Shown here one piece after another: positions 1 to 61,123 of a stretch of 61,123 bases of DNA. The DNA comes from Bacteroidales bacterium (GTDB lineage: Bacteria; Bacteroidota; Bacteroidia; Bacteroidales; WCHB1-69). The DNA lies in NCBI GenBank assembly GCA_031286285.1, contig JAITUN010000325.1, positions 1 to 61,123 of the forward strand, given 5' to 3'. Numbering within the stretch: position 1 is the first letter of the stretch; every line of letters begins with the position of its first letter. The position numbers and the translations under genes are program-made. Under the pieces are notes generated by a model. The model was not told the DNA's origin, searched no databases, and was given only the letters and a program-made list of their open reading frames with translations.

Positions 1-446
1 GGGGGTAGGGAGGTGGAACTTGGAATTTGAGACAATTTTCTACCATAAATGTCAAAAATCTCCACACTCTTCAATTCCCATTCTCCATTCTCAATCATCA
101 ATTCCCCATCTGTTGGGTTGGGATAGATTTTTACTGCATCAATTTCATTAGTTTCAATTCCAACATCAATGCCTACAATGTTAAAGTCTTTCCATACAGC
201 TGCATTTTTATAGGCTGCAACGGAACCTTTAGGAACTTTTAAAGTGCAATTCTTTTGATATATACCCTGAAATACATCGGAAGGTAAGCCAACAGGCGTA
301 GGGTTGAGATTAGTAAAAGAAGTAAGTGCGTAACAATTAGAAAAAGACATACTTCCATAATTAATCACATTACTACCCATAGAAACAGAAGTTAAACGTT
401 CACACATGGCAAAAGCGCATTGTTCAATATTAGTTAAACTATTAAG
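1..446 (-). pseudogene. 5'-truncated BspA-type leucine-rich-repeat protein with T9SS type A C-terminal domain (runs off the window start)
   Basis: Not in the ORF track. The minus frame is open from 446 (after TAA at 447-449): LNSLTNIEQCAFAMCERLTSVSMGSNVINYGSMSFSNCYALTSF...TLKVPKGSVAAYKNAAVWKDFNI...IYPNPTDGEL...VEIFDIYGRK. It has no signal peptide, and the first ATG (407) falls inside an LRR. Confidence 0.7.
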
Positions 447-462
447 TTAATTATTATCGCTG

Positions 463-470
463 CAAAAATA
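463..470 (-). promoter_or_regulatory. Bacteroidota sigma70 -7 box (TATTTTTG) upstream of the LRR fragment
   Basis: Matches the TAnnTTTG consensus. Confidence 0.55.
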
Positions 471-516
471 TATGAAATTTTAAATTCCAAAGCGTACAAA
501 CAAAGTTCCGTAGGAG

Positions 517-1584
517 TTATTTTATAATAGGTAACTGATATTGACCTTGTTGGTACAGAGGTATAGATACCCAGTCAAAGCTTTTATCAGAATAGATAGT
601 TAATAACCTTACTCCTAAAGGATAATTGTCATTCCATCCGGATGATTCCCCAACTAGAATATTAATAGTTCCATAAGGAAAAACTAAAGATTGCTGGTAA
701 GGTATATGCCAGTGTCCTGAAATCCAAAGGAAAGTGCCATTTTCTACAAATAATTTGAGAATATCCGGTTGTTGAAATGGTGCAATATGAGTCATAGTAA
801 TTACAGGCATATTTTTACTTTGTGCATATTTCAATGCTTCATTTACCCTGGCATAATGTTGATTGTATTCTTCTTTAGGAACATCATCAGGATATAATAA
901 CAAAGACGAATTTGCAGAAATGATAAAAAAATCTTTAATTTCCATCGTAATAAAATCATCGCCAAAAAAAGAGCGATAACGCTGTAATACTTCTGTTGTT
1001 ACCGAATCCGATAAATCATGATTTCCTGGAGTAAACAATATGGGTACCTTGACGTTAGCTACGATTTTCAAGAAATCATCAATTTTGTCATAGGTGTGGA
1101 TCATATCGCCTGCAAGCATTACGATGTCGGGATTAATTTCGTTGATGAGTTGAACTGCTCGAATAGCTGTTTCATCTTTAACATACCCCCATCCTAATTG
1201 AGGATCGCTCCAATGCACTATACGTAATCTTTTCAAAGAAACGACAACGGAACAGGTGTCCGATTTTTCACCCTCCTCTGTAGTAACTGTAATTATTGCA
1301 TTCCCTTTATTTATAGCAGTTACTAAACCCTCATCATTTACGGTAGCAGTTAAAGTGTCACTACTTGTCCAAATTACTCTTTTATTGATAACATTATCAG
1401 GATACAAGGTAGCAATTAACGTTTCCTTTTCGCCGATTTCAAGGATAAGTTCATTTTTATTAAGAATAAGGTTTGATACAAATATAGCTTCAGGATTAGG
1501 TTTTTGGCATGTAGAGAAAAGAAAAACACAAATCGTAAAGATTGTGAACCTTAAGAAAAATGAAAATAATAGAAGATTTTTCAT
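517..1584 (-). CDS. Lipoprotein with Ig-like (Big_2) domain and calcineurin-like metallophosphoesterase
   Basis: Signal peptide ending FSTC; Big_2 signature W-SSD...ATV...G-VTA...G-A-ITVTT; phosphoesterase motifs SDPQLG, GD, PGNHD, TH, GHWH; -7 box TATCTTTG at 1616-1623. Confidence 0.85.
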   Translation of the reverse strand: MKNLLLFSFFLRFTIFTICVFLFSTCQKPNPEAIFVSNLILNKNELILEIGEKETLIATLYPDNVINKRVIWTSSDTLTATVNDEGLVTAINKGNAIITVTTEEGEKSDTCSVVVSLKRLRIVHWSDPQLGWGYVKDETAIRAVQLINEINPDIVMLAGDMIHTYDKIDDFLKIVANVKVPILFTPGNHDLSDSVTTEVLQRYRSFFGDDFITMEIKDFFIISANSSLLLYPDDVPKEEYNQHYARVNEALKYAQSKNMPVITMTHIAPFQQPDILKLFVENGTFLWISGHWHIPYQQSLVFPYGTINILVGESSGWNDNYPLGVRLLTIYSDKSFDWVSIPLYQQGQYQLPIIK

Positions 1585-1715
1585 ATTCTAAAGATTTAAG
1601 TTTGTAAAATTTTGGCAAAGATAATAAAAACTAATCAGAGAAACATTATTGAAAAAGATAATTTCCAACCAACATGAGATTTTCTATTTTTGCAAACCCA
1701 AATTTTGCAAAACCA

Positions 1716-4340
1716 ATGCCCTCATTCCTTACCCACCTTGCAGAAAAAATTGCACAAAAAAGAGAAACCCCTTTAGAAAATACCGTGGTGGTAGTTCCTA
1801 ACAAAAGAGCTGGAAGAGAGTTGCTTCGGAAATTGGCACAGCATTTCACAAAACCTGTTTTTGCACCAAAAATCTTGTCGGTTTATGAATTTATTGAAAG
1901 TTTTTCCAACATAAAAAAAATAGATAACGACGTGCTTTTGTTGCGTCTTTTTGCAAATTACAAAGAAAAAAAGTCGGAAAAAAATGCTGATTTTGCCGCT
2001 TTTCTATCGTGGGCGCCACTCTTTTTAAGCGATATTAATGAGATTGACCTCCACTTGGCAGATGCAAATACCATTTTTTCAAATCTTTCGGAAATTAAAA
2101 CTTTAGAAACATCTTTCGGAAAAGAAAACCTTACCGAAACACAGAAAATTTATTTGAGCTTTTATAACCAACTTGCAGTTTTATATAAAGAGTTTACGGA
2201 AAGTTTGCGCGCTGAAAATGTTGGGTTTGAGGGGATGATTTATAAAGATGCGGTTTGTTTTATTAACCACAAAGGACACGAAGAAAACACAAAGGGTACA
2301 ATGCGTTACGTTTTTGCAGGAATTAATGCGGCTACACCTGCTGAATTGGAACTGTTGCACTATTTTTATTTGCATAAAAATGCTGAATTTTATTTTGATA
2401 TTGACCTCTTTTATGATGAAAAATATGGAAGTTTTATTAATGAAATAAGACAAAAACTGAGAATCTCGGAAATTCCGAAATCGAATTATTATAAAGATAT
2501 TCCCAAAAAAATCTGTGCTATAGGCGCCCCGAAACATACGGCACAAATTTATCAAGCCATTGAGATACTGAACAGTATTGAACAAAAACAGGGAAATCTG
2601 AATGATACGGTACTCGTACTCGCTGATGAATCTTTGCTCCTGCCATTCATTCATGCTTATGATACTGAAAAAACAAATATCACAATGGGATACCCGTTGA
2701 GCGCCACTTTCGCCGCCCAACAACTACTACAACTTATTGACTTTGAAAAACAAAACAACAGATTGCAAAAACCAATTTACCCATTGAAAACGCATGGATT
2801 TGAGTTCCTGAGAAATCTTTTGTTACATTTTCAAACACTTGAAAATAATATTGTTCAGTCTGATGAAAGAAACTATTATTCACTTATTGTTAATATTTTA
2901 GAGGATGTTTCTACATTACTGCGGAACTTTTTTGCTGAAAATTCAACATTGGATTTTGTGATTGTTGAGTTTTTTCTTAAAGAGAAACTGAATTCTACCT
3001 CCATTCCTTTTGCCGGAAATCTAAACGATGGTTTACAAATTATGGGATTGTTGGAAACACGGATGCTTGATTTTAAAAATGTTATCATACTATCCATGAA
3101 TGAAGGGGTTTTACCGAAAGGAAAAGCAACGCCCTCTATGTTGTTGTACGAAATTAAAAGACATTTTGGACTCCCTACCCACCAACAAAAAGATGACATT
3201 TTTGGATACCATTTTTTTAGATTGCTGCAACGTGCCGAAAATGTGTTTCTCATCTACGACAACGAATCTGTAAACACGTTAGCAGAAAAAAGCAGATTTA
3301 TCAACCAGCTGGAGTTTGAAATAAAAAAAATGAACTTTCAAAAAACAATTCAATTTGAAGAAAAAAAGTATGAACTTCGATTTTCATCTCCAAAAAACGA
3401 GACCAAAATCAGCATTGCAAAAACGGGATCTATTTATGAGAAACTAATCCGTTTTAAGTATTCTCCAACATCGTTAAATACTTATATTCAATGCCCTTTG
3501 CAATTTTATTTTAGATTTATTGAAGAGATTACAATTCCAAGAACTTTTGACCAAACCAATGAAAGCGCAGTTATCGGGACGGTGATTCATAAAGTTTTGG
3601 AGGAGATTTTTAAGGAGTTAAAGGAGAATCCTGCACAATTTACTGCCATTTTGTCGAAATATGAAAATAATATGGATGATGTGCTGCCGCTTGTATTTCG
3701 CGCCCAACCGGAAATTGGAAATGAAGATATTACGAAAGGTAAATTGTATTTAGCCTATAAAATTGCACAAAAAAGCATTATAGATTACATTAAAGTAGTT
3801 CAAAAAGAATGGGAAATTTCCCCTTTCCAAATTATCTCTACAGAAACTCCAATAGCTGCTGAAATAGAAGTTGATGAAAATAAATTACGCTTTAAAGGAA
3901 CAGCAGACCGCATTGAGATGCGCGATAATAAAGTTACCATTTTAGATTACAAAACAGGAAAAGTGGATGCGAAAAAACTGCAATGTATAACCGAAGATTT
4001 TGCAACTGTTTTTTCCGAACCGGAAAAATCTCAACTCTTTCAACTTTTGTGTTACACTTATCTATATCAACACAGCGATCTTTCTTCTTTGGTTTCAACC
4101 GATGAGATTCAATGTGGAATTATTGCATTTCAGGAACTGTACAAACAGAACGAAGCGTATATTTGCTACGCCCAAATAGATAAAAATCAAGTGTTAACCC
4201 ATGAGGTTTTACAGATGTTTGAAGAGCATCTAAAACAACTCTTTTCAGCTATTTTAGATAAAAAAACTCCATTTCTTCAATCCAAAGACCCTGAAAAAAC
4301 CTGTGTCTATTGTGATTATAAGGGGATTTGTAATTTGTAA
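1716..4340 (+). CDS. AddB/RexB-like protein: degenerate helicase plus C-terminal Fe-S PD-(D/E)XK nuclease
   Basis: VVPNKRAG, LQIMGLLETRMLDF, SPTSLNTYIQCP, GTADRIE...LDYKTG, FQL..Y, CVYCDYKGIC. Start moved to ATG 1716 because the -7 box TATTTTTG (1685-1692) lies inside the longer ORF. Confidence 0.85.
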   Translation: MPSFLTHLAEKIAQKRETPLENTVVVVPNKRAGRELLRKLAQHFTKPVFAPKILSVYEFIESFSNIKKIDNDVLLLRLFANYKEKKSEKNADFAAFLSWAPLFLSDINEIDLHLADANTIFSNLSEIKTLETSFGKENLTETQKIYLSFYNQLAVLYKEFTESLRAENVGFEGMIYKDAVCFINHKGHEENTKGTMRYVFAGINAATPAELELLHYFYLHKNAEFYFDIDLFYDEKYGSFINEIRQKLRISEIPKSNYYKDIPKKICAIGAPKHTAQIYQAIEILNSIEQKQGNLNDTVLVLADESLLLPFIHAYDTEKTNITMGYPLSATFAAQQLLQLIDFEKQNNRLQKPIYPLKTHGFEFLRNLLLHFQTLENNIVQSDERNYYSLIVNILEDVSTLLRNFFAENSTLDFVIVEFFLKEKLNSTSIPFAGNLNDGLQIMGLLETRMLDFKNVIILSMNEGVLPKGKATPSMLLYEIKRHFGLPTHQQKDDIFGYHFFRLLQRAENVFLIYDNESVNTLAEKSRFINQLEFEIKKMNFQKTIQFEEKKYELRFSSPKNETKISIAKTGSIYEKLIRFKYSPTSLNTYIQCPLQFYFRFIEEITIPRTFDQTNESAVIGTVIHKVLEEIFKELKENPAQFTAILSKYENNMDDVLPLVFRAQPEIGNEDITKGKLYLAYKIAQKSIIDYIKVVQKEWEISPFQIISTETPIAAEIEVDENKLRFKGTADRIEMRDNKVTILDYKTGKVDAKKLQCITEDFATVFSEPEKSQLFQLLCYTYLYQHSDLSSLVSTDEIQCGIIAFQELYKQNEAYICYAQIDKNQVLTHEVLQMFEEHLKQLFSAILDKKTPFLQSKDPEKTCVYCDYKGICNL
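2266..2301 (+). repeat. Solo arm of the CACAAAG-type (9-mer based) repeat element, in frame inside the AddB-like gene
   Basis: ACCACAAAGGACACGAAGAAAACACAAAGGGTACAA closely matches the reverse complement of the hydF element right arm (ACCACAAAGGACACAAAGTGTTTTCACAAAGGACACAAAG). Confidence 0.75.
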
Positions 4341-5504: not shown

Positions 5505-5507
5505 ACC

Positions 5508-5538
5508 TTAAATTATTAAATTATTAAATTTTTAAATA
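5508..5538. repeat. Octamer tandem (TTAAATTA/TTAAATTT) filling the ATPase-hydF gap
   Basis: ttaaatta ttaaatta ttaaattt ttaaata read directly from the sequence. Confidence 0.55.
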
Positions 5539-5539
5539 A

Positions 5540-6817
5540 ATGATAAACTCAAAACCCCACATCGGTATTTTCGGGCGGCGCAACAACGGGAAAAGCGCGC
5601 TCATCAATGCACTTACCGGACAAGAGATTGCTATCGTATCTGATGTTCCCGGCACTACCACCGACCCCGTAAAAAAAAGTATGGAGATCTTCGGCATCGG
5701 TCCTGTTGTCCTCATTGATACTGCCGGACTGGACGACGAAAACGAACTGGGGAAAAAACGAGTGGAAAAGACTGAAAACGTGCTGAAACAGATTGATTTG
5801 GCAATCCTTGTGCTTACCAACTACCAATTTGAGGAGATTGAAGAAAAACTGACAGGTAAACTTCGTACGTTGGATACGCCCTTTGTCATCGTTAATAATA
5901 AATCGGATATTACTGCTCCAAAAGATGTTATTATTGAAAACGAAACTGTTATTTCTTTAAGTGCAAAAACAGGAGATGGGCTTCCCGAATTGATAGAAAG
6001 TCTTAAACAAAAGATGCCCGTTTCTGCATATCAAACCCATTCATTATTGGAAGGGATTGTAAAAGAAAACGATACCGTGCTGCTCATTACCCCCATTGAC
6101 AGCGAAGCGCCGGAAGGGAGGCTGATTTTACCGCAAGTACAAACCATCCGCGCCATTTTAGACCAAAACGCGGTTGCAGTGGTTCTAAAGGAGGATAAGA
6201 TACGATCATTCTTTAAGTCAAAAAAAATAACCGCAAAGAGCGCAGAGAGTTTACGCAAAGAGCGCAAAGGGTTAACATTCTTTGTGTCCTTTGTGAAAAC
6301 ACTTTGTGTCCTTTGTGGTAAAAAAAAATCAAGTCAGATAGATTTAGTAATTACCGACAGCCAGGTGTTTAAAATGGTGGCACCGCTCGTTCCGCCGGAG
6401 ATCCCCCTTACCAGTTTCAGTATTTTATTGGCAAGATTCAAAGGTGATTATGAGAACTATCTAAAAGGCACTCCCCAAATAGAAAATCTAAAGGATGGCG
6501 ATTCGGTGCTCATCATGGAGTCGTGCACCCATCTTACCTCCTGCGAAGATATTGGACGCGTGAAGATTCCGAAATGGCTTACCGAATATACAGGGAAAAC
6601 CTTACATTTTGATTTTGTTTCAGGATTAACACCCATAGAAAACATGGAGAAATACGCATTGGTTGTGCAGTGTGGCGGCTGCATGATTACCAAAAAACAA
6701 CTCCTTAATCGGCTAAAACCGGCAGTAGATGCCGGCATTCCCATAACCAACTATGGAATGTTGATTGCATTCATTGAGGGGATTTTTGAACGAGCGACTG
6801 AAAAGATATATGAATAA
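5540..6817 (+). CDS. hydF: [FeFe]-hydrogenase H-cluster maturation GTPase HydF, carrying an in-frame insertion
   Basis: HIGIFGRRNNGKS, GTTTDPV, DTAG, NKSD, PID..AP.GRLILPQVQ, VITDSQ, ESCTH...EDIGRVKIP...QCGGCM, TNYG. Confidence 0.95.
   Translation: MINSKPHIGIFGRRNNGKSALINALTGQEIAIVSDVPGTTTDPVKKSMEIFGIGPVVLIDTAGLDDENELGKKRVEKTENVLKQIDLAILVLTNYQFEEIEEKLTGKLRTLDTPFVIVNNKSDITAPKDVIIENETVISLSAKTGDGLPELIESLKQKMPVSAYQTHSLLEGIVKENDTVLLITPIDSEAPEGRLILPQVQTIRAILDQNAVAVVLKEDKIRSFFKSKKITAKSAESLRKERKGLTFFVSFVKTLCVLCGKKKSSQIDLVITDSQVFKMVAPLVPPEIPLTSFSILLARFKGDYENYLKGTPQIENLKDGDSVLIMESCTHLTSCEDIGRVKIPKWLTEYTGKTLHFDFVSGLTPIENMEKYALVVQCGGCMITKKQLLNRLKPAVDAGIPITNYGMLIAFIEGIFERATEKIYE
6230..6319. repeat. 90-bp imperfect palindrome (40-bp arms, 10-nt loop) inside hydF
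   Basis: Arms 6230-6269 and 6280-6319: 29/40 Watson-Crick pairs plus 7 G-T pairs by manual alignment. Built from CGCAAAGAG/CACAAAGGA 9-mers and flanked by A-tracts. Confidence 0.9.
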
Positions 6818-6845
6818 CAAACTTCGGAATAGAACTTGCTTTCTA

Positions 6846-9473
6846 TTAATAGTTTTGGTTTGAACCACCTCCTCTTAATATCATCACAATTCCACTGAGA
6901 AATCTCTTTTTTATTCCTTCCAACGAAAATAAATAGACATCACAGCCATAATAATAAGTTCCTTCAGGGAGATCACGACCTGTTTTTTCATCTTTTCCAT
7001 CCCAGTTAATATCAGGGTTTTCTGTTTTAAAAACCCGCTTTCCCCATCGGTCATGAACCTCTAAATCAATTTTTTTCACATTAATATTTGTGCCATCAAA
7101 AGGTACCCATGTATCGTTTATGCCGTCGCCGTCAGGTGTAAACACATTGGGCAATGAATAAGTTCTACATTGGTCAATATCAATGCAATGTTTTGGCGTC
7201 ATTTCTGTACAATTGCCTGCTTCATCTTTGATAATCATCGCATAACAACCTATTGCCGAAGGGAGATTTTGAATAATATAATAACAAGGACAAGAAGATG
7301 GCCAACAACTATCTACATTAGAAAAAAGGAAAGAATCAATGCAAGAGAAAGGGGTTTGATAATTGGGTTGGTAATAGATATAATATTGATATGCATCTAA
7401 GTAGGAAACAGAATCGGGAAAAACCCACCAAAAAGTAACATTTTCACAATCGGTGGTTATATACGTTGTATCAGGCATATTAGGCGGAATATTGTCCACC
7501 GGTACTCCGCATCGTTTTTGGGAACGATTATAAAGTGGCATCACAGTGTCCGGAATCGTGTATTGCCCCACAGATTTTACATAATAACAATAATTTATGC
7601 CATTGTATACTTCAATATCATCATAAAAATTGTACTCGGTTGTATTAATGGAATCGAACTGTTGGGAGTTTTCGTCGCTACGATAAATAATATAGTCAAT
7701 ATTTTTCCAAGGGACATCCTCATTCCATGATAATTTCAATTTTTTGTCTGTTTCTTCAATTTTCAAGAAGATAGAAGAAGCAGGGTCTGAGTTTTCAATA
7801 TGTACTCTATCACCTGACTTATTTTCTCCCCAAAATTCTATCTGATAAAAATACTGAATCTCTTTAGTATTTAACGATTTATCAATAAATGAAGTGTCTC
7901 GCAATGAAAAAGTTGAAGCAACATATTTAAAATTATTTTTATCATTTGGAGATCGAAATATTTTATATTCAAAATTTGGTCCGGGGAAAATGGTAGTATC
8001 TATTTCCGGTGGAGGGATCCAGGCAACAGCAATTTCTCCGTTACTTTCAGAAGTTTGCATTACATCTACTTTGGAAATCATAGGGGCATCAGTAACAATA
8101 GCAGCACAAGTTTCGTTGGAGACAATACTTTCAGCTCCGTCACTAAAAACTGCAATAATTCGATAGCAGTATTCGCGGCCGTGCGTCAGTGGAGTTACAG
8201 ATCCGTTATCAACATACTCAGTATTTGAAGCATTTGTTTTTGCTAAAAGTTGAAATCTTTCCGAATAGGGGATACCGGTTTCACAAAAATCGGGTTCAAA
8301 ATGAGAAGAATCTGTTTTCCTATAGATATGTATTTCTGTTGCATTCAAACAACAATAATTATCCCATCGTAAAATAATAGAATTTAAAATAGGAAATGAG
8401 GTTAAATTCTGCGGAGCGGGAGCAATCACTTTAATATTAACTGTTTTAAAAGCCGTCAAGTTTACTTGGGGTCCATTATCTGTGGCTTTAAGCACTATTT
8501 GATAAGGAGATTTTTTGATATGTTCGCAAACTGTTTGCCAGATAAAATTGGTTTCTAATGTTGGTTTTCCGGACACATTCACAGGTATTGCGGGCGAAGT
8601 TGCGGTCATAAAAGGCGCACCGGTAGCCGTAAGCGTTACTTGTGTAGATATTGTATCTTTTACTGTAATATCTAATAAAATTAGATTTCCGGAGACAACA
8701 CAAGTGTCGTTGCATAAAATTTGAGGCGGTCTATTGTTACAAGCCGAAATAGTAATTTGTAAATCACGCACTATACTTCCTATAAACTGCCCTCTTCTAT
8801 ATTCGGAAATCAGAATTGCAACATTATACTCACCCTGAATAATTGGGGTTTCCCAAATTAAGTCGCCTGTAATTTCATCAATAGTAATATATTGTGAAGC
8901 TTGAGGGAGTCGGTACCCCGGAATAGGAAGCCCATCCATTCCGCGACAATCAACCAATTTGTAAGATAATGAATCGCCGTCAGGGTCATAAGCACCCACA
9001 TTGTGATAATATGTAACTCCCACACAGCCATTATCTAAAGGCGGATTTAATAATTGAACCGAATTATTGTATCCCAAAAAAGGATTAATAACCACTATAG
9101 TTTCAATAAAAAACGGAATATTTACTGAATTTGGGATGTTTATAATTCCGGCATTTCGGTTTGGATCTTCAAATGTAACGGAAAAGATGCCTGAGGAAGA
9201 AAAAGTGTGTGTGGCAACATAGGTGTTTTTAGAAATATCAGGTGCAACAGAGATTTTAGAAAGCCGTTGAATAGTGCTACTTGAATTGTCACCCCAAAAC
9301 ACTTCGATTTCAGGTCTATCTGCCGGACTTGGAGTGTATGTATAGGTAATAATTGTAAATTTGTATGTTAATCCGCTTTGATGTTCATATGTGATTTCGC
9401 CTGCCCGTTGATGTGTAGCGAAACCGGCATTCCAAAGTAAAATGAACCCCAAAAATAGTAATAGTTTACGCAT
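6846..9473 (-). CDS. T9SS cargo with gliding-motility-associated (type B, CHU_C-like) C-terminal domain and FN3-like repeats
   Basis: Signal peptide MRKLLLFLG...AGFA-THQRAGEITY; DPDGDSLSY; C-terminal LPNVFTPDGDGIND...DRWGK.VF...WDGK...GTYYY. Start at ATG 9473. Confidence 0.85.
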   Translation of the reverse strand: MRKLLLFLGFILLWNAGFATHQRAGEITYEHQSGLTYKFTIITYTYTPSPADRPEIEVFWGDNSSSTIQRLSKISVAPDISKNTYVATHTFSSSGIFSVTFEDPNRNAGIINIPNSVNIPFFIETIVVINPFLGYNNSVQLLNPPLDNGCVGVTYYHNVGAYDPDGDSLSYKLVDCRGMDGLPIPGYRLPQASQYITIDEITGDLIWETPIIQGEYNVAILISEYRRGQFIGSIVRDLQITISACNNRPPQILCNDTCVVSGNLILLDITVKDTISTQVTLTATGAPFMTATSPAIPVNVSGKPTLETNFIWQTVCEHIKKSPYQIVLKATDNGPQVNLTAFKTVNIKVIAPAPQNLTSFPILNSIILRWDNYCCLNATEIHIYRKTDSSHFEPDFCETGIPYSERFQLLAKTNASNTEYVDNGSVTPLTHGREYCYRIIAVFSDGAESIVSNETCAAIVTDAPMISKVDVMQTSESNGEIAVAWIPPPEIDTTIFPGPNFEYKIFRSPNDKNNFKYVASTFSLRDTSFIDKSLNTKEIQYFYQIEFWGENKSGDRVHIENSDPASSIFLKIEETDKKLKLSWNEDVPWKNIDYIIYRSDENSQQFDSINTTEYNFYDDIEVYNGINYCYYVKSVGQYTIPDTVMPLYNRSQKRCGVPVDNIPPNMPDTTYITTDCENVTFWWVFPDSVSYLDAYQYYIYYQPNYQTPFSCIDSFLFSNVDSCWPSSCPCYYIIQNLPSAIGCYAMIIKDEAGNCTEMTPKHCIDIDQCRTYSLPNVFTPDGDGINDTWVPFDGTNINVKKIDLEVHDRWGKRVFKTENPDINWDGKDEKTGRDLPEGTYYYGCDVYLFSLEGIKKRFLSGIVMILRGGGSNQNY

Positions 9474-10515
9474 GGTTTTGTTTGAGTAAAGAAAATAGTT
9501 TTTCATTAAAAGCAGATTCATTTTCTAAAAAAGCAATTTCAATAGGAATTGTATCATATTCAGGCATGTTTTCAAAAGTTTGTAATCGGGTAGCATCTTT
9601 TTCAGTGGTAATAACGGTACAATTTTCACCGCCCAATTTTTCTTTCAGAAGAATTATTTTTTCTATATCTTTTCTTGTAAACGAGTGGTGGTCAGGGAAA
9701 TGAAGTTTGTGAATAGTTTGGTATTGAGTTTCTAAATATTTCACTAAAGGTACAGGGTTTGCAATACCGGTAATGAGAAGGCATTGAGAATTTTGAATTT
9801 CATCTTTTCGGTATGGCTGAAATTCTGCCTCAGTCGAACTATAGTTCTTATACTCTATCCTTGTAAAAAACACCTCTTGATATGGTTTTGGCTTCAGTTT
9901 TCTCAAAAATTGTTCTTTTTCTTTTTCTGATAATTTTTCAGGACACTTGGTAACAATAATAATATCGGCATATTTTGATGCGCAACTAAACTCTCTCAAA
10001 CTTCCGGATGGTAATGGGAAATCATTAAAGTAAGGGCGTTCAAATTCTGTTAGAAGTATTCTTAAAGAATAGTTTACGGATAAATGTTGGTATGCGTCAT
10101 CTAAAATAACGAGTTCTAATTCAGGATTTTTTTGTAGTAGTTTTTGGATGCCGATTTTCCTTTTCTCGCATACAGCAACCTCAATATTTGGAAATTTGGT
10201 AACATATTGCATCGGTTCATCGCCAATGATTTTGTAACTGAGGTTTTGTGTTTCGTGGGCATTGATATAACCTTTTGTTTTTCTTTTGTACCCACGACTT
10301 AATATGGCAACATTGTGATTTCGAGACAAAAGTTTTGCTATATATTCCACATGAGGGGTTTTTCCGGTACCACCCACCCGCAGATTGCCCACGCAAATAG
10401 TTGGAATTGTAAATGTTTCAGGAGTTTTATAGGAATTTCTGAGGAAAGCAGTTGTCATTCCATACACGATGGAAAGAGGAGAAAGGAGAATGGAGAATGG
10501 AGATTTGTTTTTCAT
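9466..10515 (-). CDS. lpxK: Tetraacyldisaccharide (lipid A) 4'-kinase
   Basis: VGNL.VGGTGKTP, SRGYKR, GDEP, LDDAYQH, P.G.LRE, GIANP, FPDHH, TTEKDA. The -7 box TACCTTTG (10520-10527) lies just before ATG 10515, so the mRNA is probably leaderless. Confidence 0.95.
   Translation of the reverse strand: MKNKSPFSILLSPLSIVYGMTTAFLRNSYKTPETFTIPTICVGNLRVGGTGKTPHVEYIAKLLSRNHNVAILSRGYKRKTKGYINAHETQNLSYKIIGDEPMQYVTKFPNIEVAVCEKRKIGIQKLLQKNPELELVILDDAYQHLSVNYSLRILLTEFERPYFNDFPLPSGSLREFSCASKYADIIIVTKCPEKLSEKEKEQFLRKLKPKPYQEVFFTRIEYKNYSSTEAEFQPYRKDEIQNSQCLLITGIANPVPLVKYLETQYQTIHKLHFPDHHSFTRKDIEKIILLKEKLGGENCTVITTEKDATRLQTFENMPEYDTIPIEIAFLENESAFNEKLFSLLKQNHA
10476..10503 (-). repeat. Heptamer tandem (TCTCCAT x2, TCTCCTT, TCTCCTC) encoding the LpxK N-terminus
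   Basis: Plus strand GAGGAGA AAGGAGA ATGGAGA ATGGAGA. Confidence 0.65.
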
Positions 10516-10626
10516 GGCGCAAAGGTAGAAAAAAGTTTCAGAAAAATATTGAATAATATTTTCATTCACATCTTTACTTATTTTGTGAACAAAAAAAGAT
10601 ATTTTTGCAACCCTTTAAAAAAAAGT

Positions 10627-11982
10627 ATGAAACGTGCCTTTCTTTTTTGTATTTTACTAATTATCAGTTTTTCTACTGCAATGGCACAGGTTTCAATTGA
10701 TGCCATTATTGCTATTATTGGAAAGGAAATCATATTACAATCAGATTTAGAAAAAGCCTATGCTGAATATGCTTCACAATTTGCTGTAAAAGATGAAGAT
10801 GAAGATGAAAAATGTAGTGTTTTTGAACATTTAGTTTATACTAAGCTAATGTTACATCAAGCTGATATTGATAGTATTGTGATTACAGACAAGCAAGTAG
10901 AAGCTGCTCTTAATGCCCGTATTAACTATTATCTCCAATTGACAGGCGGGGACTCAAGAGTGATTGAAAAGCATTTTGGCAAAAACATCGCTGAAATAAA
11001 AAATGATTTACGTGGAATTGTTCGCGATCAAATGTATGTAGAAGAGATACAAGAAAAAATTACCTCTAATATTTCGGTAACCCCCTCTGAAGTAAAATCT
11101 TTTGTGAACAGATATGGAGTGGATAGTATGCGGATTATTCCGGCTACTTATGAATTTGGACATATCTTAAAAACACCTCTTGTAAGTTTGGATGAAATTT
11201 CCGGCATTAAAGATAGGTTAGAAAGTTATAGAGAAAGGGCGCTCCGTAGCGATAAAAAGGAGCAGGAATTTAAAGTACTTGCAAATTTGTATTCCGATGA
11301 CCCGGGTACAGCCTCTAAAGGAGGAAATTTAGGATTTGTTGAACGTGGTACGCTCTACCCTGAATTTGAAGCCGTTGCCTTTAACCTCAAATCGGGTGAA
11401 ATCTCGCATGTGGTGAAAACTAAAGCCGGATACCACATTATACAACTCATTGAACGTAGAGGAGAATCGGTTAATGTTTCCCATATTTTACTTCAACCAA
11501 AACCCTCTTCCGAAGAACAAGTAAAAACAATAGAATATTTAGACAGTATTAAAAAAGTAATTTTAGATAAGAAAATCGATTTTAGCGATGCGGCTTTATT
11601 GTTTTCCGATGACCCAAATAAAATTAGCGGCGGATGGGTTATAAATCCATATTCACTTTCTACAAAATTTGACCAAGAATCTTTAGAACCAACTACATTT
11701 GCGACTTTAAACAGACTTATCCCCGGAGAATACTCATCTCCTATTATCTATATTGATGAAGACGGAATAGTCTCCTATCGTTTATTGTACTTGAGAAGTA
11801 AAGTCGCACCCCATAAAGCAAATTTAGTTGAAGATTATGACGTTATTAAGAACGACGCTTTAGATGAAAAGAAAAGCAAAGCTATTGAAAAATGGATTAT
11901 TAATAAAGTTAAAACAACAAGTATTCAAATAAAAGAAAAATATAAAAATTGCGACTTTATGTCACGTTGGCAAATTAATTAA
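10627..11982 (+). CDS. surA: SurA-like periplasmic chaperone / parvulin PPIase
   Basis: Signal MKRAFLFC...AMA-Q; ID.IIA.IG..IIL.SD; rotamase motifs YSDDPGTASKGG.LG, PEFE..AF.L, GYHIIQ. -7 box at 10600-10607 supports ATG 10627. Confidence 0.85.
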   Translation: MKRAFLFCILLIISFSTAMAQVSIDAIIAIIGKEIILQSDLEKAYAEYASQFAVKDEDEDEKCSVFEHLVYTKLMLHQADIDSIVITDKQVEAALNARINYYLQLTGGDSRVIEKHFGKNIAEIKNDLRGIVRDQMYVEEIQEKITSNISVTPSEVKSFVNRYGVDSMRIIPATYEFGHILKTPLVSLDEISGIKDRLESYRERALRSDKKEQEFKVLANLYSDDPGTASKGGNLGFVERGTLYPEFEAVAFNLKSGEISHVVKTKAGYHIIQLIERRGESVNVSHILLQPKPSSEEQVKTIEYLDSIKKVILDKKIDFSDAALLFSDDPNKISGGWVINPYSLSTKFDQESLEPTTFATLNRLIPGEYSSPIIYIDEDGIVSYRLLYLRSKVAPHKANLVEDYDVIKNDALDEKKSKAIEKWIINKVKTTSIQIKEKYKNCDFMSRWQIN

Positions 11983-11993
11983 CTTAACTTACT

Positions 11994-12968
11994 ATGAATA
12001 TTCAATTTAAAAATGATGTAGAAGCCATTGAAGCTTTTGTGGAAAAATACGATGCGTTAAAAAAAGAGATTGCAAAAGTAATTGTTGGTCAGGATGACAC
12101 TGTAAAAAATGTACTTATGGTACTCTTTAGCCGAAGCCATGCCTTGCTAATTGGAGTGCCTGGATTAGCTAAAACGTTGATGATTACAACTATTGCAAAA
12201 ACAATCAACTTGACTTATAACCGTATCCAATTTACCCCAGACTTGATGCCATCGGATATTATGGGTACTGAAATTTTGGACGAAAATAGAAAATTTAAGT
12301 TTGTAAAAGGTCCCGTTTTTGCAAATATCGTTTTGGCAGATGAAATTAACCGTACTCCACCAAAAACCCAGTCCGCACTATTAGAAGCGATGCAGGAACG
12401 TTCCGTAAGTATGAATGCCATTACTTACACTCTGCCCGACCCTTTCTTTGTTCTGGCTACTCAAAACCCTATCGAACAAGAAGGAACTTACCCGCTCCCC
12501 GAAGCACAACAAGACCGATTCATGTTTAACATTTATTTAGATTATCCCTCTTTTCAAGAAGAAGTAGATATTGTGAAAACAACTATTCACGGGGATATGA
12601 ACGAACCAAAACAAATTTTATCTATTGAGGAGATTATTTTCTATCAAAAACTACTTCAAAAAGTGCCTATTGCAGAAAATGTGTATGAATATGCGGTCCG
12701 TTTGGCTACCTTAACTCGTCCTTTTACCGGTACAGGACATCAATGGGCAAAGGATTATTTAGCTTGGGGCTCAGGTCCTAGGGCTTCTCAATTTTTAATT
12801 ATCGGGGCGAGAACCCATGCCATCCTTTCCGGAAAACTATCCCCCGATATTGAAGATGTTAGAGCCGTAGCACACAATATTTTAAGACATCGTATCATCA
12901 AAAATTATAAAGCTGAGGCAGAAGGAATTACCGTAGATGATATTATCAACAAACTGTTGTATGAATAA
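11994..12968 (+). CDS. MoxR-family AAA+ ATPase
   Basis: GVPGLAKT, RIQFTPDLMPSDI, LADEINRTPPKTQSALLEAMQE, ATQNPIEQEGTYPLPEAQ.DRF. Confidence 0.95.
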   Translation: MNIQFKNDVEAIEAFVEKYDALKKEIAKVIVGQDDTVKNVLMVLFSRSHALLIGVPGLAKTLMITTIAKTINLTYNRIQFTPDLMPSDIMGTEILDENRKFKFVKGPVFANIVLADEINRTPPKTQSALLEAMQERSVSMNAITYTLPDPFFVLATQNPIEQEGTYPLPEAQQDRFMFNIYLDYPSFQEEVDIVKTTIHGDMNEPKQILSIEEIIFYQKLLQKVPIAENVYEYAVRLATLTRPFTGTGHQWAKDYLAWGSGPRASQFLIIGARTHAILSGKLSPDIEDVRAVAHNILRHRIIKNYKAEAEGITVDDIINKLLYE

Positions 12969-17640: not shown

Positions 17641-17669
17641 AGGCGGAAATTGAAATTCCGCCTTTTTTT
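17641..17669 (+). terminator. Rho-independent terminator after exbD
   Basis: AGGCGGAA-attgaaa-TTCCGCCT followed by a T-tract. Confidence 0.85.
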
Positions 17670-18027
17670 ATTTCATTGATTTTAACGCTTTTGCCAACTG
17701 GTCCGGACAGGAAGTCGTTTTGTCTCCGCAGATAATCCCTTCCAATTTTGCAATCGCAGAATCTATCTGCATCCCTTCAGCTAATCTTGACACTCCTTGC
17801 GTATTACCCGCACACCCCTTGGTGATTTTTATGCTTCGAATTGTATCATTTACCACAGAAATATCAAACTGCTTGCTGCAAACTCCTTCCGGAATATAGG
17901 TAATATTTTTTGTTATCATCTCTTTTTGATTTAATTTGGTTTGATTATTACAATTTAATATGCAGAATGCGAAAACTGCTAATATTATTAATTTTGAATT
18001 TTGAATTTTGAGTTTTGAATTATTCAT
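17668..18027 (-). CDS. TIGR03905-like TSCPD-domain protein with possible lipoprotein-like N-terminal extension (alternative start 17919)
   Basis: Y.P.GVCS..., GC.GN.QG...L.EGM, L.GI.CG.K.TSCPDQLAKAL. Confidence 0.85.
   Translation of the reverse strand: MNNSKLKIQNSKLIILAVFAFCILNCNNQTKLNQKEMITKNITYIPEGVCSKQFDISVVNDTIRSIKITKGCAGNTQGVSRLAEGMQIDSAIAKLEGIICGDKTTSCPDQLAKALKSMK
17954..18019. repeat. Heptamer tandem TTTTGAA x4 (17992-18019) with a degenerate inverted arm (17954-17974)
   Basis: TTTTGAA TTTTGAA TTTTGAG TTTTGAA; opposite arm TTTAATA TGCAGAA TGCGAAA. Confidence 0.7.
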
Positions 18028-18040
18028 ATTTATTTTTTAA

Positions 18041-18075
18041 GCACAGAGACACAAAGAACACAAAGTTTCACAGAG
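18041..18075 (+). repeat. Intergenic copy of the CACAAAG/CACAGAG repeat family
   Basis: GCACAGAGACACAAAGAACACAAAGTTTCACAGAG; same units as the hydF and addB-like copies. Confidence 0.75.
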
Positions 18076-18091
18076 ATTTTTATACTTAATC

Positions 18092-18117
18092 GTCATTTCG
18101 AGCGAAGCGAGAAGTCT
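18092..18117 (+). repeat. REP-like mini-palindrome GTCATTTCGAGCGAAGCGAGAAGTCT
   Basis: GC-rich GTCATT-led stem-loop with a GAA loop in an AT-rich spacer; resembles GTCATT-type palindromic elements seen in many bacteria (recognition from memory). Confidence 0.55.
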
Positions 18118-18135
18118 TGACCCAAACCGTAATTT

Positions 18136-34365: not shown

Positions 34366-34389
34366 TTTTGTAAATTTTAATTGTGAATA

Positions 34390-41780: not shown

Positions 41781-41813
41781 TAAAAAAAATATTTATCAAT
41801 TAACAATAATAAT

Positions 41814-55618: not shown

Positions 55619-56908
55619 TTAATTATTGTACAGATTTTTTAAATCGTACAGGGCTTTTAGGTATTGCGTTTCATGCACAATTTTTTGCGCTTTTGCAGCG
55701 TGCTCCATATTAAGGTCGCGCATAAGATCTGTCATGCTCATCGTGCCATTTTCAGTTTTTGTTTCCGATGCTTTGTAAATAGATTCACGCATACGAATAA
55801 TCTCGTCATCGGAACTTAAAATCTTTCTATACTGCTCTGCAATTGCATTTTGTTGTTTAGCTTGAATGGTTTGGTTTAACAAAAACAGTTTTCTGCTGAT
55901 CTCTATGCTACTGATATTATTTTCAATTATCTTTTTTTCATTTTTTATAGTGTAAAGATTTCCGAAACCCCAGTTGAGTTGTACGCCTCCTATAGCATAA
56001 AATTTCCCATTAGTATCAAACATATTTAAACCGGGTCGTGCAAACCCACCTTGCACAAAAAGTCCAATTTTCGGCATATTTTTCGATAAAATCTGCATAT
56101 TTTGAATTTTTTGAGCAGAGATTGAGGCATCAAAAAGTTTCAACTCAAAACGGTTATTAGTTTCTTGAGTTGTAACAACTTCGGGTTTTTGCAGCACAAT
56201 ATCGGGCGCTAAATTCTCTCCCATAAAAGCGCTTAGCATTGCCACAAAAGCCTCTCGCATGGTTGTAAGTTGTATAATACCCTGTTCGGCTGTGATCTGT
56301 TCCACTTTCACTGCATCTATATCCGATTCATTGGCAAACCCCAATTCTGCAAAACTGGTAACCTTATCCAAATTGCGCTGCAACTCTTTTAAATTTACTT
56401 TAAGCTGTTCTAATTGGCTGTCGTACAAGATAATGCCAAAAAAAAGGTCATTTACCCGTCCTCTGACAGCGTAAATATCCACTTCGTATTGTTTTCGTTG
56501 AACTTCGGTAGCCGCCTGAATTGTTTTCTTTGTTGAGCGTATTTGTCCGCCATCCCAAATAATCTGATTTAGTTGCAGATATGTTTGGTACTGGTCTTTA
56601 GGAACATCAATTTTCAAGTTGAGAGGAGGACCAACTTCAAATTTTGGCACATCGGTTTGCAAAGTGGCTTTCCCATACAGTTGCAACTGTGGAATCCATG
56701 CACGGGATATGTTTTGCAGATTGTATTTCTCGCTCAACTCAATCAACTCTAATTGTTGAATAAGCGGGTAGTTTTTTTCGGTTTTTTCGTAACATTCCGA
56801 TAGGGTTAAAGGTTGGGCGGAGAGCAAGAGGGGGAGAAAGGAGAAAGCGGAAAGCACGAAAACGCGAAAGCGCGAAAAAGGATTTGTTTTTAATGGGTAC
56901 ATGATCAA
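55619..56908 (-). CDS. TolC-family outer membrane efflux protein
   Basis: L..CY....NYPL, Q.IWDGG, PKIGLFVQGG..RPGLNM, C-terminal NGT...DL; -7 box at 56984-56991. Confidence 0.88.
   Translation of the reverse strand: MIMYPLKTNPFSRFRVFVLSAFSFLPLLLSAQPLTLSECYEKTEKNYPLIQQLELIELSEKYNLQNISRAWIPQLQLYGKATLQTDVPKFEVGPPLNLKIDVPKDQYQTYLQLNQIIWDGGQIRSTKKTIQAATEVQRKQYEVDIYAVRGRVNDLFFGIILYDSQLEQLKVNLKELQRNLDKVTSFAELGFANESDIDAVKVEQITAEQGIIQLTTMREAFVAMLSAFMGENLAPDIVLQKPEVVTTQETNNRFELKLFDASISAQKIQNMQILSKNMPKIGLFVQGGFARPGLNMFDTNGKFYAIGGVQLNWGFGNLYTIKNEKKIIENNISSIEISRKLFLLNQTIQAKQQNAIAEQYRKILSSDDEIIRMRESIYKASETKTENGTMSMTDLMRDLNMEHAAKAQKIVHETQYLKALYDLKNLYNN
56833..56877 (-). repeat. Three octamers plus three heptamers encoding most of the TolC signal peptide
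   Basis: Coding strand TTTCGCGC TTTCGCGT TTTCGTGC TTTCCGC TTTCTCC TTTCTCC. Confidence 0.7.
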
Positions 56909-58255: not shown

Positions 58256-58266
58256 ACTATTTTTGT

Positions 58267-60191: not shown

Positions 60192-60228
60192 GGGGAAATG
60201 TTGCCCACTTTCGGGGGAGAAGTTGCCC
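60192..60228. promoter_or_regulatory. Paired 15-bp direct repeats (22-bp period), putative operator upstream of the nuclease gene
   Basis: GGGGAAATGTTGCCC (60192-60206) and GGGGAGAAGTTGCCC (60214-60228): GC-rich, pseudo-palindromic, in an AT-rich spacer. Confidence 0.5.
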
Positions 60229-60232
60229 TGTT

Positions 60233-60305
60233 TTTTTAAATTTTTAAATCTACTAAGGTTATAATGTATTAAATAAGGTTTTTTAAATTTTTAAATTTTT
60301 AAATC
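60233..60305. repeat. Two blocks of the octamer tandem TTTTTAAA
   Basis: (TTTTTAAA)2TCT near 60233-60251 and (TTTTTAAA)3TC near 60280-60305. Confidence 0.55.
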
Positions 60306-60309
60306 TGGG

Positions 60310-60519: not shown

Positions 60520-60536
60520 TTTTTTCAAACTTTTCG

Positions 60537-60609
60537 CAAAAATATTTCGTTTTCTTTTTTTAGGGCAAAAACTGCACGAACGGTAGAATTTTTGTCATGA
60601 ATGGTAAAA
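60537..60609 (-). promoter_or_regulatory. Consensus Bacteroidota promoter (TTTG-N21-TATTTTTG) with upstream LytTR-like direct repeats
   Basis: -7 box 60537-60544, -33 TTTG 60566-60569; minus-strand ACCATTCAT and ACCGTTCGT with a 21-bp period (60575-60609). Confidence 0.6.
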
Positions 60610-60784
60610 AGGGATTAAATTGCAAATTTTACCCCAAATTGTACAAAATCTCAAAAAAACTGCGCTAATTTGTGAAAAACTGCAGAAAAAACAGATAAAT
60701 TGCATTTTTTAACACGTTGATTATTAGAAAAATAATTTCAAAAAAAAAGGGGGCATATCGAAATAATTTTATTTTTGCCGCACG

Positions 60785-60808
60785 TTACGAATTACGAATT
60801 ACGAATTA
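60785..60808 (+). repeat. Heptamer tandem (TTACGAA)x3 in a 5' UTR
   Basis: TTACGAATTACGAATTACGAATTA directly after the -7 box TATTTTTG (60770-60777). Confidence 0.8.
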
Positions 60809-60839
60809 AACTCTAAACCTTAATAAAACAAGAAATAAT

Positions 60840-61123
60840 ATGAAAAAAGAAAAAGAACTTTCGTGGGCAGAAATCAAAGCGATGTTTGCCGAAACCGACA
60901 AACAGTTTAAAGAAACTGACAGACGGTTTAAAGAAACCGACAAAAAAGTTGATAAGATGTGCGAAAGAATAGACCGACTTGGAGAGCATCTGGGCGGAAT
61001 ATCTAACAGCAACGGGGATATGGCTGAAGAGTATTTTTTCAACACCCTAAATAGAGACAAAAAATTTGCGAATGAAACTTTTGATAGAATGAAACGAAAT
61101 GTTTCCTACGATGAAAATGACGA
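60840..61123 (+). CDS. Coiled-coil (heptad-repeat) protein of the DUF3782-like/PD-(D/E)XK-associated type, partial
   Basis: Not in the ORF track because it is open at the window end: MKKEKELSWAEIKAMFAETDKQFKETDRRFKETDKK...LGGISNSNGDMAEEYFFNTL; contains 21-bp tandem repeats. Confidence 0.75.
   Translation, partial: MKKEKELSWAEIKAMFAETDKQFKETDRRFKETDKKVDKMCERIDRLGEHLGGISNSNGDMAEEYFFNTLNRDKKFANETFDRMKRNVSYDEND

Follow-up and report, generated by a model that had tools for sequence, protein, structure and literature searches.

Repeat tracts along the contig

The stretch analysed here, referred to as the window, is an entire contig of 61,123 nucleotides (C132) from a Bacteroidales genome of 3.16 Mb in 327 contigs with 36.6% G+C (G000), and our subject is the short repeats that lie in and between its genes. 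The genome is saturated with three kinds of repeat: tandem arrays of heptamers and, less often, octamers; palindromes made of inverted arrays of CRCAAAG units; and hairpins resembling repetitive extragenic palindromic (REP) sequences, some of them beginning with GTAG or CGTC. Pfam searches with 46 open reading frames (ORFs) of the window returned ordinary housekeeping and envelope genes, including cargo genes of the type IX secretion system (T9SS) with Por_Secre_tail or CHU_C domains, a HydF-like GTPase and a D-lysine 5,6-aminomutase. This gene content points to an anaerobic member of the Bacteroidota, and the window is an ordinary chromosomal stretch of such a T9SS-bearing genome. One public termite gut metagenome run (X1) contains 96% of the words sampled from 10 kb of the window, and an Rfam scan of the window detected tRNA only, the repeats matching no curated RNA family.

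A sequence-only reading had listed 16 tracts from several repeat families and had ascribed them to an active writing mechanism. Using Tandem Repeats Finder (TRF; rows reported at a score of at least 30), direct reading of the sequence and mapping onto ORFs and Pfam matches, we found 12 of the 16 tracts to be real and correctly placed. The tracts and their settings are as follows.

74-92, minus strand: heptamer array (coding-strand unit GGAGAAT, peptide ENGEWEL) in the first hairpin of the T9SS C-terminal domain (CTD) of ORF 3-407 (Por_Secre_tail)
2266-2300, plus strand: CACAAAG half element of three units, read in frame as NHKGHEENTKG, in an AddB-like PD-(D/E)XK nuclease gene (1674-4340)
5508-5537, unstranded: octamer array, TTAAATTA x3.8, filling the 35-nt spacer between an ATPase stop (5504) and the hydF start (5540)
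6221-6328 (shared core 6228-6323), plus strand: full inverted CRCAAAG palindrome, in frame in the HydF_dimer domain of ORF 5540-6817
10477-10503, minus strand: heptamer array TCTCCAT x3.9 (peptide SPFSILLSP) at the N-terminus of LpxK (ATG at 10515)
17990-18021, minus strand: heptamer array AAAATTC x4.6 (peptide NSKLKIQNSKL) in the Lys-rich n-region of the lipoprotein signal peptide of a TSCPD-domain gene (17668-18027)
18028-18135, unstranded: lineage-specific 108-nt insert between the stop of the polynucleotide phosphorylase (PNPase) gene and the TSCPD start
18041-18080, intergenic, within this insert: CACAAAG half element
18090-18116 (listed earlier as 18092-18112), intergenic, within this insert: GTCATT element, starting with CGTC
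31942-31962, minus strand: degenerate heptamer-like stretch (FQVMSDE) at CTD position 1 of an M6-like peptidase, under the TRF threshold
41612-41640, plus strand: degenerate heptamer-like stretch (LNEELKINIVE) at CTD position 1, under the TRF threshold
44037-44062, plus strand: degenerate heptamer-like stretch (ELRITNKDL) at CTD position 1, under the TRF threshold
56833-56877, minus strand: 7/8-mer array (GGAGAAA, GAAAGCGC; peptide FSRFRVFVLSAFSFLP) in the signal-peptide hydrophobic core of a TolC-like OEP gene (ATG at 56902)
60233-60249 (x2.1) and 60280-60304 (x3.1), unstranded: two intergenic octamer arrays of TTTTTAAA
60785-60808, plus strand: intergenic heptamer array TTACGAA x3.4 (AATTACG family), 32 nt upstream of the ATG of ORF 60840-61121

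The CACAAAG family, proposed at 2266, 6230 and 18041, was recovered at these places as a half, a full inverted and a half element, respectively. The array at 74-92 reached a TRF score of only 31 and lies at the CTD position where paralogues bear clear arrays. A heptamer tract at 9784 gave no TRF row at a score of at least 30 and had to be given up; the stretches at 31942, 41612 and 44037 gave none either, but they occupy the CTD position at which paralogues carry clear arrays and, judged by this position, may be decayed array copies. Compared with 100 shuffles of the window, four period-7 arrays with scores of at least 40 stood against a mean of 0.00, and three of period 8 against 0.04; at a score of at least 30, nine period-7 arrays stood against 1.97, none of the 100 shuffles reaching nine. 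Moreover, independently assembled Logan contigs of run X1 spanned 6052-12020 with no differences and 17884-18577 with five, and a further contig spanning 4654-5730 confirmed the octamer spacer array, so that the window tracts are not artefacts of the genome assembly.

Abundance, families and placement

Genome-wide, arrays of periods 7 and 8 lay far above shuffled controls (eight codon shuffles and eight dinucleotide-block shuffles), bearing out the expected excess. At a score of at least 50 there were 175 period-7 arrays against none in the 16 shuffled genomes, 37 of period 8 against none, 70 of period 14 against 1.0 and 1.8 (codon and dinucleotide-block shuffles, respectively), 73 of period 21 against 8.1 and 5.2, and only 10 of period 9 against 0.1. 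At a score of at least 40, 248 period-7 arrays were observed against 0.6 and 1.1, and at a score of 30 the 463 observed compare with 92-130 expected, about a quarter of these rows being due to chance. This last figure, together with the four of 16 listed window tracts that fell under the TRF threshold, speaks for chance low complexity in an AT-rich genome, or an assembly artefact, as the origin of the tracts. As an explanation of the phenomenon as a whole, however, that idea is refuted by the shuffles at high scores, by the agreement of the independent contigs and by a like phenomenon in six separately assembled congeners, and we regard its probability as close to nil.

The 248 period-7 arrays reduce to 48 canonical units, eight of which account for 166 arrays (ACTACTC, 47; AAAATTC, 25; AACTTCT, 24; AACTCGT, 21; AACCATT, 14; AACTTGT, 13; AACCACT, 11; AAAGCAG, 11). 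Only one has the TAACTGA unit known from other bacteria (canonical form AACTGAT), namely AGTTATC in a CTD with the peptide FSVISCQ, while many others are of the form TAAC-NNN. The CRCAAAG family gave 46 two-unit matches at 31 loci, with many copies at contig ends; 38 matches had at least three units, against none in five shuffles, the underlying pattern (spacing 2-5) missing the HydF element. Only two of the roughly 35 CRCAAAG loci lie inside genes, both in the window. As a single word, CACAAAG is not over-represented in heptamer counts, the excess being limited to spaced arrays. The GTCATT element is present in 20 genomic copies at up to three mismatches, against none for the reversed element.

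Relatives were sampled at 12-80 kb per genome (16 genomes, which as kin are not independent). The density of period-7 arrays with scores of at least 40 was 7.9 per 100 kb in G000, chance giving about 0.03, and among the congeners it was 31 (G003), 11 (G004), 9 (G006), 8 (G005), 4 (G002) and 0 (G001). Other genera of the same family gave 24 (G011), 6 (G023), 2.5 (G019), 1.3 (G018), 1.2 (G008) and 0 (G009), and other families of the order 0, 0, 0 and 1.2. The units differ from genome to genome, although the AATTACG family recurs in congeners and in a named Lentimicrobiaceae metagenome-assembled genome (MAG). Array-coded CTDs and signal peptides occur in congeners as well, and of the 20 arrays of G011, 17 are non-coding. 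Four exact ACTACTC units were found in seven of 401 Bacteroidota sampled; G000 has 26 overlapping matches, and elsewhere, among the matches listed, the unit occupies one or two places per Bacteroidota genome. It also occurs in records titled Schlesneria, Mesorhizobium, Rhizobium, Thermoguttaceae, Gemmatimonadales, Parcubacteria, Cyanobacteria and Aliikangiella.

With respect to placement, 351 heptamer-type arrays (score of at least 40; periods 7, 14 and 21 with heptamer sub-structure) were classed on a crude ORF map: 93 were closed in all six frames, 72 lay without an ORF of at least 100 codons, 57 lay at most 40 codons from an ORF start and 21 at most 40 codons from a stop, and of the remainder 65 were in T9SS CTDs and 43 elsewhere inside long ORFs. 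The earlier picture of repeats colonising genes, always at tolerant sites, was therefore overstated, as at least 165 of the 351 arrays are certainly non-coding and lie mainly at gene boundaries; its other half stands, in-frame copies being present genome-wide in signal peptides, linkers and CTDs. ORFs hardly ever contain the units that are closed in all frames (AACCATT, AACCACT, AACTTCT), as would follow if frame, stop content and structural tolerance decide survival in genes.

The arrays show a marked bias in their orientation to the adjacent gene, and this applies even to units that no frame leaves open. Near stops, AACTTCT is on the same strand once and on the opposite strand 17 times; near starts, AAAATTC is oriented 15 to 1 and AACCATT 10 to 2, and TAACCAT-type arrays finish 0-10 nt before the ATG. 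In consisting of head-to-tail 7-nt units far above chance, chiefly intergenic, near ORF ends and with a strand preference, the arrays agree with the short tandemly repeated repetitive (STRR) and long simple sequence repeat (LSSR) class. These regularities also bear on an alternative in which the arrays are selected cis-elements of translation initiation, insulation or termination, or mRNA stability, or else contingency switches of secretion that operate by 7-nt slips, the coding copies being functional. The 1:17 bias of the six-frame-closed AACTTCT is in line with it, and the TAACCAT family abuts starts in the manner described for TAACTGA repeats (PMC4679880). However, an orientation bias could also stem from a replication or transcription asymmetry of the generating process, and overall we consider selected elements or switches a rather unlikely explanation.

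Translated arrays and turnover at orthologous sites

Because seven is not a multiple of three, three units code for a 7-residue peptide, and each unit family has its own periodic peptide. The proposed cycling of 7-mers through the three frames is indeed reflected in 7-residue periodic peptides such as KIQNSKF, THYSLLT, TSYELRV and EVRSQKL, and several repeat families were seen in frame at signal peptides, linkers and CTDs throughout the genome, as had been claimed from the window.

By the motif pair PNP...GIYF we recognised 72 CTDs, 71 of them in frame, and 34 of these 71 carry at least one array with a score of at least 30. Their assignment to T9SS sorting domains (PF18962, beta-sandwich) is supported by matches in window ORFs and in an array-bearing CTD (L141; E 7.2e-16); the nearest named relatives, as judged from a CTD query, come from a 'Lentimicrobiaceae bacterium' MAG (two contigs, 55% and 53% identity). 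The commonest CTD comprises PNPTTGEL, RVTSYELQVTS, IEVFDIYGRAV, STHYSLLTTHYS and INISHL, the RVTSYELQVTS and STHYSLLTTHYS parts being coded by ACGAGTT/ACAAGTT and ACTACTC units. Other units at position 1 are AATTGAC (IDNGQLT), AATTACG (ITNYELR), AGTTATC (VISCQFS) and GAGTAGT (VSSEYRV), and at position 2 some CTDs contain a palindrome-encoded insert, EISRFARNDAGNS (the reverse strand of the GTCATT element) or NSPPFMEGWQPQADGVV. When 29 CTDs were aligned, array-coded parts matched ordinary CTDs at equal or nearly equal length, and palindrome-coded parts added 10-17 residues; in the commonest type, the arrays take the place of native strands at equal length and add nothing. AlphaFold2, run on the CTD alignment (mean pLDDT 90.6; seven strands), places residues 14-18, 24-30, 36-41 and 47-51 in strands (b2-b3 and b4-b5), suggesting that the arrays encode four strands of the sandwich, not loops.

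The contingency-switch alternative can be weighed on these CTDs. As in phase-variation contingency loci, the unit is not a multiple of three, the genes encode secreted or surface proteins, and one CTD, the only one of the 72 that is out of frame (G000:C151:5157-5337), is shifted directly after its ACTACTC array; this could represent an off-state, a pseudogene or an assembly slip. Unlike contingency loci, 71 of 72 CTDs are in frame, no length variants were seen in the X1 contigs, a kind of assembly that drops rare variants, and arrays are also found in essential enzymes, where on/off switching would be lethal.

The CTDs also bear on the idea that no new insertions took place and that the coding copies descend from a single array-bearing cassette (CTD or signal peptide) that was duplicated and shuffled among paralogues. 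Near-identical CTD cassettes (QSKSAQSVSSEFEKSITI.PNPTTGEL...KKVVKQ) end different proteins on six contigs, and the CTDs are mosaics of few variants at position 1, position 2 and the last strands. Cassette duplication is thus a real contributor for CTDs, but as the sole explanation it is refuted by arrays and palindromes in single-copy housekeeping genes; moreover, the repeats are absent from or different in orthologues, and 165 of 351 arrays are non-coding. We consider a purely inherited origin improbable.

Signal peptides provide a second large class. Among 2049 ATG-started ORFs of at least 150 codons, 46 carry an array within the first 35 codons, and 41 of these 46 have a hydrophobic, signal-peptide-like core. 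About a dozen signal peptides read MNNSKFKIQNSKF plus LLSAFCFLL, their n-region stemming from AAAATTC units and their h-region from CTTTCTG units. The window array at 17990-18021 is absent from five of five congeners, a like arrangement being found at a dozen other genes of G000. At the N-terminus of LpxK, the array at 10477-10503 looks like an in-situ amplification of a native LLSPFS sequence that is found in congeners.

For the other internal arrays, Pfam was run on 20 of 41 distinct non-CTD ORFs, obvious spurious ORFs and CTD proteins having been dropped; 19 of the 20 have Pfam families and one has none. By our reading, the array lies within a matched domain in ten cases (HemN radical-SAM, NTP transferase, three Mur-ligase domains, methyltransferase, the editing domain of leucyl-tRNA synthetase (LeuRS), GARS_C, TcdB_toxin_midN and DUF2229), between two matched domains in four (a Mur ligase, a UvrA-like protein, an NtrC-type regulator and FtsK) and has a match on one side only in five. 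Inside or between domains are thus 14 of the 20, including four Mur ligases, LeuRS, PurD and HemN. The TcdB_toxin_midN case is an ORF with FG-GAP and TcdB_toxin_midN domains (L140; G000:C237:2268-3983), in which a CTTTCTG-family array (SGKQKAEGRKA) lies within the latter domain.

The HydF element consists of four CGCAAAG units, a loop and four CTTTGTG units with A-run flanks, adds approximately 36 residues and splits the Pfam HydF_dimer domain. Contigs of X1 that derive from other loci or organisms match it over 6228-6323, their loose ends marking the shared core. As sense RNA it forms an almost perfect long hairpin (-48.1 kcal/mol, z -9.0, equalled by none of 200 shuffles), as compared to -25.9 kcal/mol (z -2.8) for the antisense strand; the two arms differ systematically (CGCAAAG vs CTTTGTG), and G-U pairs therefore form on the sense strand only. 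This far better pairing as sense RNA is a further point in favour of the cis-element alternative. An AlphaFold2 model of HydF (19-sequence alignment, mean pLDDT 80) is least confident in the insert, with 10-residue blocks at 55, 44 and 36 between well-modelled flanks, which fits a surface excursion. HydF was present in 40 of 40 relatives searched, ten of which were aligned, and alignment to orthologues, the check called for by the idea of repeats entering genes, showed the insert to be missing from six of six sequences of other genera, which have a short linker. Like a Rickettsia palindromic element (RPE), it is therefore a multi-copy palindrome that reads in frame within a conserved gene and that orthologues lack.

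Within the genus, by contrast to these other genera, the same site is occupied in four of four congeners: by a full CRCAAAG palindrome in G005, a four-unit CRCAGAG half element in G006, a perfect 20-nt palindrome in G004 and three CCCAAYY heptamers in G001. At the loop of the AddB-like protein, four congeners have a half element, a TAACCAC x4 array, two GC-rich palindromes and a full palindrome, respectively. LeuRS carries AAAGCAG and ACTACTC in G000, AATTCTC x5 in G005, inverted CAYACCG arrays in G004, ACACTTG-type units in G001, AAAATTG x4 in G006 and a decayed form of the G006 array in G002. LpxK has an N-terminal CCGCAAA array in G004 and internal inserts in G004 and G006, PurD, HemN and the Mur ligase show a like same-site pattern, and the spacer before hydF holds other heptamer arrays in G005. 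The HemN-like gene of G004 is divided between two contig ends (C91 and C71) exactly at the repeat-bearing loop, where repeats seem to break the assembly. Over eight sites in seven genes (HydF, AddB-like, LpxK twice, LeuRS, PurD, HemN and Mur ligase), a recognisable repeat was found by eye in 32 of 40 site-by-genome cells, and, CRCAAAG elements excepted, the units at orthologous sites differ among congeners. Conversely, units recur within a genome: AAAGCAG in LeuRS and PurD of G000, CAYACCG in LeuRS, Mur ligase and LpxK of G004, and AATTCTC and GGAGAAT in G005. That CRCAAAG is kept at the HydF and AddB-like sites of several congeners suggests an ancestral insertion, elsewhere overwritten by other repeats, so that occupied sites would attract further change. 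The free variation of unit and length at one site argues against a sequence-specific function there, and thus against selected cis-elements.

Tentatively, and as an outcome that we think unlikely, a trans-acting, genome-specific process might keep rewriting repeat-occupied sites with the current 7-nt units of the genome, making secretion signals and permissive enzyme loops a moving target.

The spacer between PNPase and the TSCPD-domain gene is 3-6 nt in five of five congeners, as compared to 108 nt in G000, which in addition has the array-coded signal-peptide extension. For the region 18036-18125 within the insert, RNA folding was not significant in either orientation (z -1.1 and +0.2). Next to it lies one further feature.

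18165-18239, minus strand: tandem repeats of 12 and 18 nt that code for the C-terminal tail of PNPase, which is rich in Arg, Gly and Glu

These repeats are ordinary in-frame low complexity and not a 7/8/9-mer tract. The PNPase tail (window 18136-18260; loci L031-L035) is Arg/Gly-rich in all six congeners, each with different in-frame tandem repeats (GDR x4 in two of them). At 60891-60944, a 21-nt tandem repeat (x2.6) without a 7-nt sub-period, absent from the earlier list, encodes ETDKQFK-like heptads in the 3'-open ORF 60840-61121. Finally, paralogous T9SS cargo genes form a tandem pair in each of 31762-37002 and 39609-44222, their products being M6-like peptidases and Listeria-Bacteroides-repeat proteins.

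Turnover, candidate drivers and known systems

Previous work has described heptamer arrays close to ORF ends that show strand bias and a patchy distribution (PMC4679880, PMC4692102), as well as in-frame palindromes in conserved genes (PMC3733652). A heptamer excess in scattered bacterial lineages has been noted since at least a 2007 survey, and PMC4679880 and PMC4692102 give no established mechanism for it. TAACTGA repeats occur in marine Beggiatoaceae, some Cyanobacteria and five Bacteroidetes (MacGregor 2015, PMC4679880), and Gramella and Aequorivita have other heptamers beside them. Our arrays share with these repeats tandem 7-nt units, many of the form TAAC-NNN, a mostly intergenic location a few nucleotides before starts or just after stops, a fixed orientation to the gene and a patchy phylogenetic spread. 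Unlike that system, which has one unit, the present one has 48 unit families and a large translated fraction; a coding TAACTGA case described there consists of two repeats close to the end of a putative purC, and the supplementary tables of that paper may list others.

A heptamer excess is also known from the STRR and long simple sequence repeats of Cyanobacteria (for Mrazek 2007 and Calothrix see PMC4679880 and PMC4692102), among them GGGAATC and GGGGAYT repeats (Rehm 2015, PMC4692102). Common to these and our arrays are the genome-wide heptamer excess, positions within some 50 bp of ORF ends and a strand preference, as well as the occupation of the same intergenic sites in relatives with wide variation of length and sequence; polymerase slippage has been proposed (PMC4692102). 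STRR are described there as under-represented in coding regions, whereas here at least 65 arrays lie in CTDs and dozens in signal peptides and enzymes; unlike the repeats of PMC4692102, the present units are AT-rich and do not form G-quadruplexes.

RPEs and REPs lie in frame in conserved genes, many of them replication and repair genes, and add 20-40 residues (Di Nocera 2013, PMC3733652). Different REPs at approximately one recB site in two Xanthomonas species parallel the AddB-like loop, and G-T pairs in REP stems have been taken to suggest an RNA role (PMC3733652). Unlike a simple RPE or REP hairpin, the CRCAAAG element is made of inverted arrays of a 7-nt core at 9-11-nt spacing, and its loci are rarely genic; the likeness is one of architecture. 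A search of the literature, with subscription journals outside its scope, found no published description of translated heptamer arrays in T9SS CTDs or signal peptides. New with respect to the literature found are the scale of heptamer-array translation, its use for T9SS sorting-domain strands and both parts of signal peptides, and the systematic same-site turnover across congeners.

We suggest, with slightly better than even confidence, that the repeats, STRR-like arrays and REP-like palindromes alike, turn over fast and that selection filters the result. Arrays would lengthen and shorten through slipped-strand mispairing; units would spread among loci via recombination, gene conversion or template switching between arrays; and REP-type hairpins, by analogy, may be moved by the Y1 transposases of the genome, which resemble REP-associated tyrosine transposases (RAYTs). 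Selection would retain coding copies in which the frame is kept, no stop codon arises and the site is free to vary, the permitted sites being signal-peptide n- and h-regions, two hairpins of the T9SS sorting domain (itself cleavable), linkers between domains and loops at the surface. The few dominant families and the recurrence of units at unrelated loci require copying between loci, and the different units at orthologous sites require rapid replacement. Slippage and recombination, a dedicated writer and selected cis-elements are not mutually exclusive.

Several points weigh against such turnover. Purely local slippage would give as many units as loci, not 48 units with two thirds of the arrays in eight of them, and the inter-locus copying or unit-specific process that is needed has in neither case been observed directly. 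The presence of ACTACTC in distant phyla hints at an intrinsic or transferable cause that turnover does not explain. In addition, the X1 contigs showed no copy-number polymorphism at the window arrays, within the limits of contigs that drop rare variants, and both the crude ORF map behind the coding classes and the Pfam sample of 20 ORFs limit what can be read from the placement. In one X1 contig (depth 12), 28 other letters link 18008 to 18092; as repeat families flank both sides, this contig probably represents another locus, although it may be a co-existing allele.

Mismatch-repair loss was rejected as the cause: MutS_I is present in 39 of 41 genomes, including G000 and the array-rich G003, G004, G006 and G011, so that such loss is not needed (MutL was not searched). 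G000 has eight Y1_Tnp matches over the cut-off. A GTAG-started hairpin is repeated ahead of the ORF on C326; the other seven ORFs have other flanks or are cut by contig ends. These eight genes, the C326 arrangement and the 20 copies of the CGTC-started GTCATT element are reminiscent of REP/RAYT systems (REPtrons). Unlike in REPtrons, no link of the Y1 transposases to heptamer arrays or CRCAAAG was seen, and gene counts do not track array density. As drivers of the heptamers they were therefore rejected, counts and densities being unrelated over 16 genomes (G011 has no gene and 24 arrays per 100 kb, G025 six genes and no arrays). At G000:C228:29492-29833, a Y1 transposase gene is followed by a hairpin and then by short AATGAAG-type tandem units, the only adjacency of a transposase and heptamer-like repeats that was seen. 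A 21-nt unit, GCGTCTTGCTTCGTTCCGTAG, occurs in up to 20 copies (G000:C249:7407-7815, C105:1141-1246 and C83:34-76) and has an CCTACGGAAC core in common with the GTAG-type hairpins upstream of the C326 gene.

Two reverse transcriptase loci are present in G000, neither of them seen beside arrays. One, on C300 (L121:799-2295, minus strand), encodes a 498-residue reverse transcriptase with an FGE-sulfatase-like C-terminal part, a combination reminiscent of the targets of diversity-generating retroelements; the second, truncated, on C177, adjoins two ORF6N-domain genes.

These genes bear on a further alternative, in which a dedicated trans-acting writer or homogeniser, for example a reverse-transcriptase-like or HUH-nuclease-like templated process specific to the genome, installs and refreshes units and thereby brings about concerted evolution. 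Such a writer would account for units common to unrelated loci of one genome but different at the orthologous sites of congeners, for the dominance of few families, for patchy densities among genera of one family (G011, G009 and G008) and for the frequent inverted pairs of arrays in G004, and reverse transcriptases and Y1 transposases are at hand. However, no enzyme has been tied to the arrays, Y1_Tnp counts are unrelated to their density, the reverse transcriptase loci do not adjoin them, and the comparison rests on small samples of related genomes; no candidate enzyme for heptamer arrays emerged among the MutS_I, Y1 transposase and reverse transcriptase genes examined. We regard a dedicated writer as possible yet unlikely. 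Of the active writing mechanism put forward by the sequence-only reading, an ongoing lineage-specific process is thus supported by turnover and unit recurrence, but a dedicated enzyme was not found among these genes.

For genome annotation, these repeats call for caution, since start codons, 'hypothetical' ORFs and low-complexity filters mishandle genomes of this kind. If a dedicated enzyme were at work, it would represent a new kind of DNA-writing activity, and a rewriting process, if real, would be a built-in generator of peptide novelty, with the enzyme behind prokaryotic heptamer arrays to be found in it. Irrespective of the driver, tandem 7-mers and small palindromes read as protein are a natural source of new peptide sequence, and the genus provides a densely populated comparative system for dating the gain, loss and replacement of repeats at orthologous sites. 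Array-coded signals set a lower bound on the sequence information that such signals need, and, as the models suggest, repeat DNA may encode working parts of proteins and not loops alone, namely four T9SS sorting-domain strands as well as the charged and the hydrophobic portions of signal peptides.

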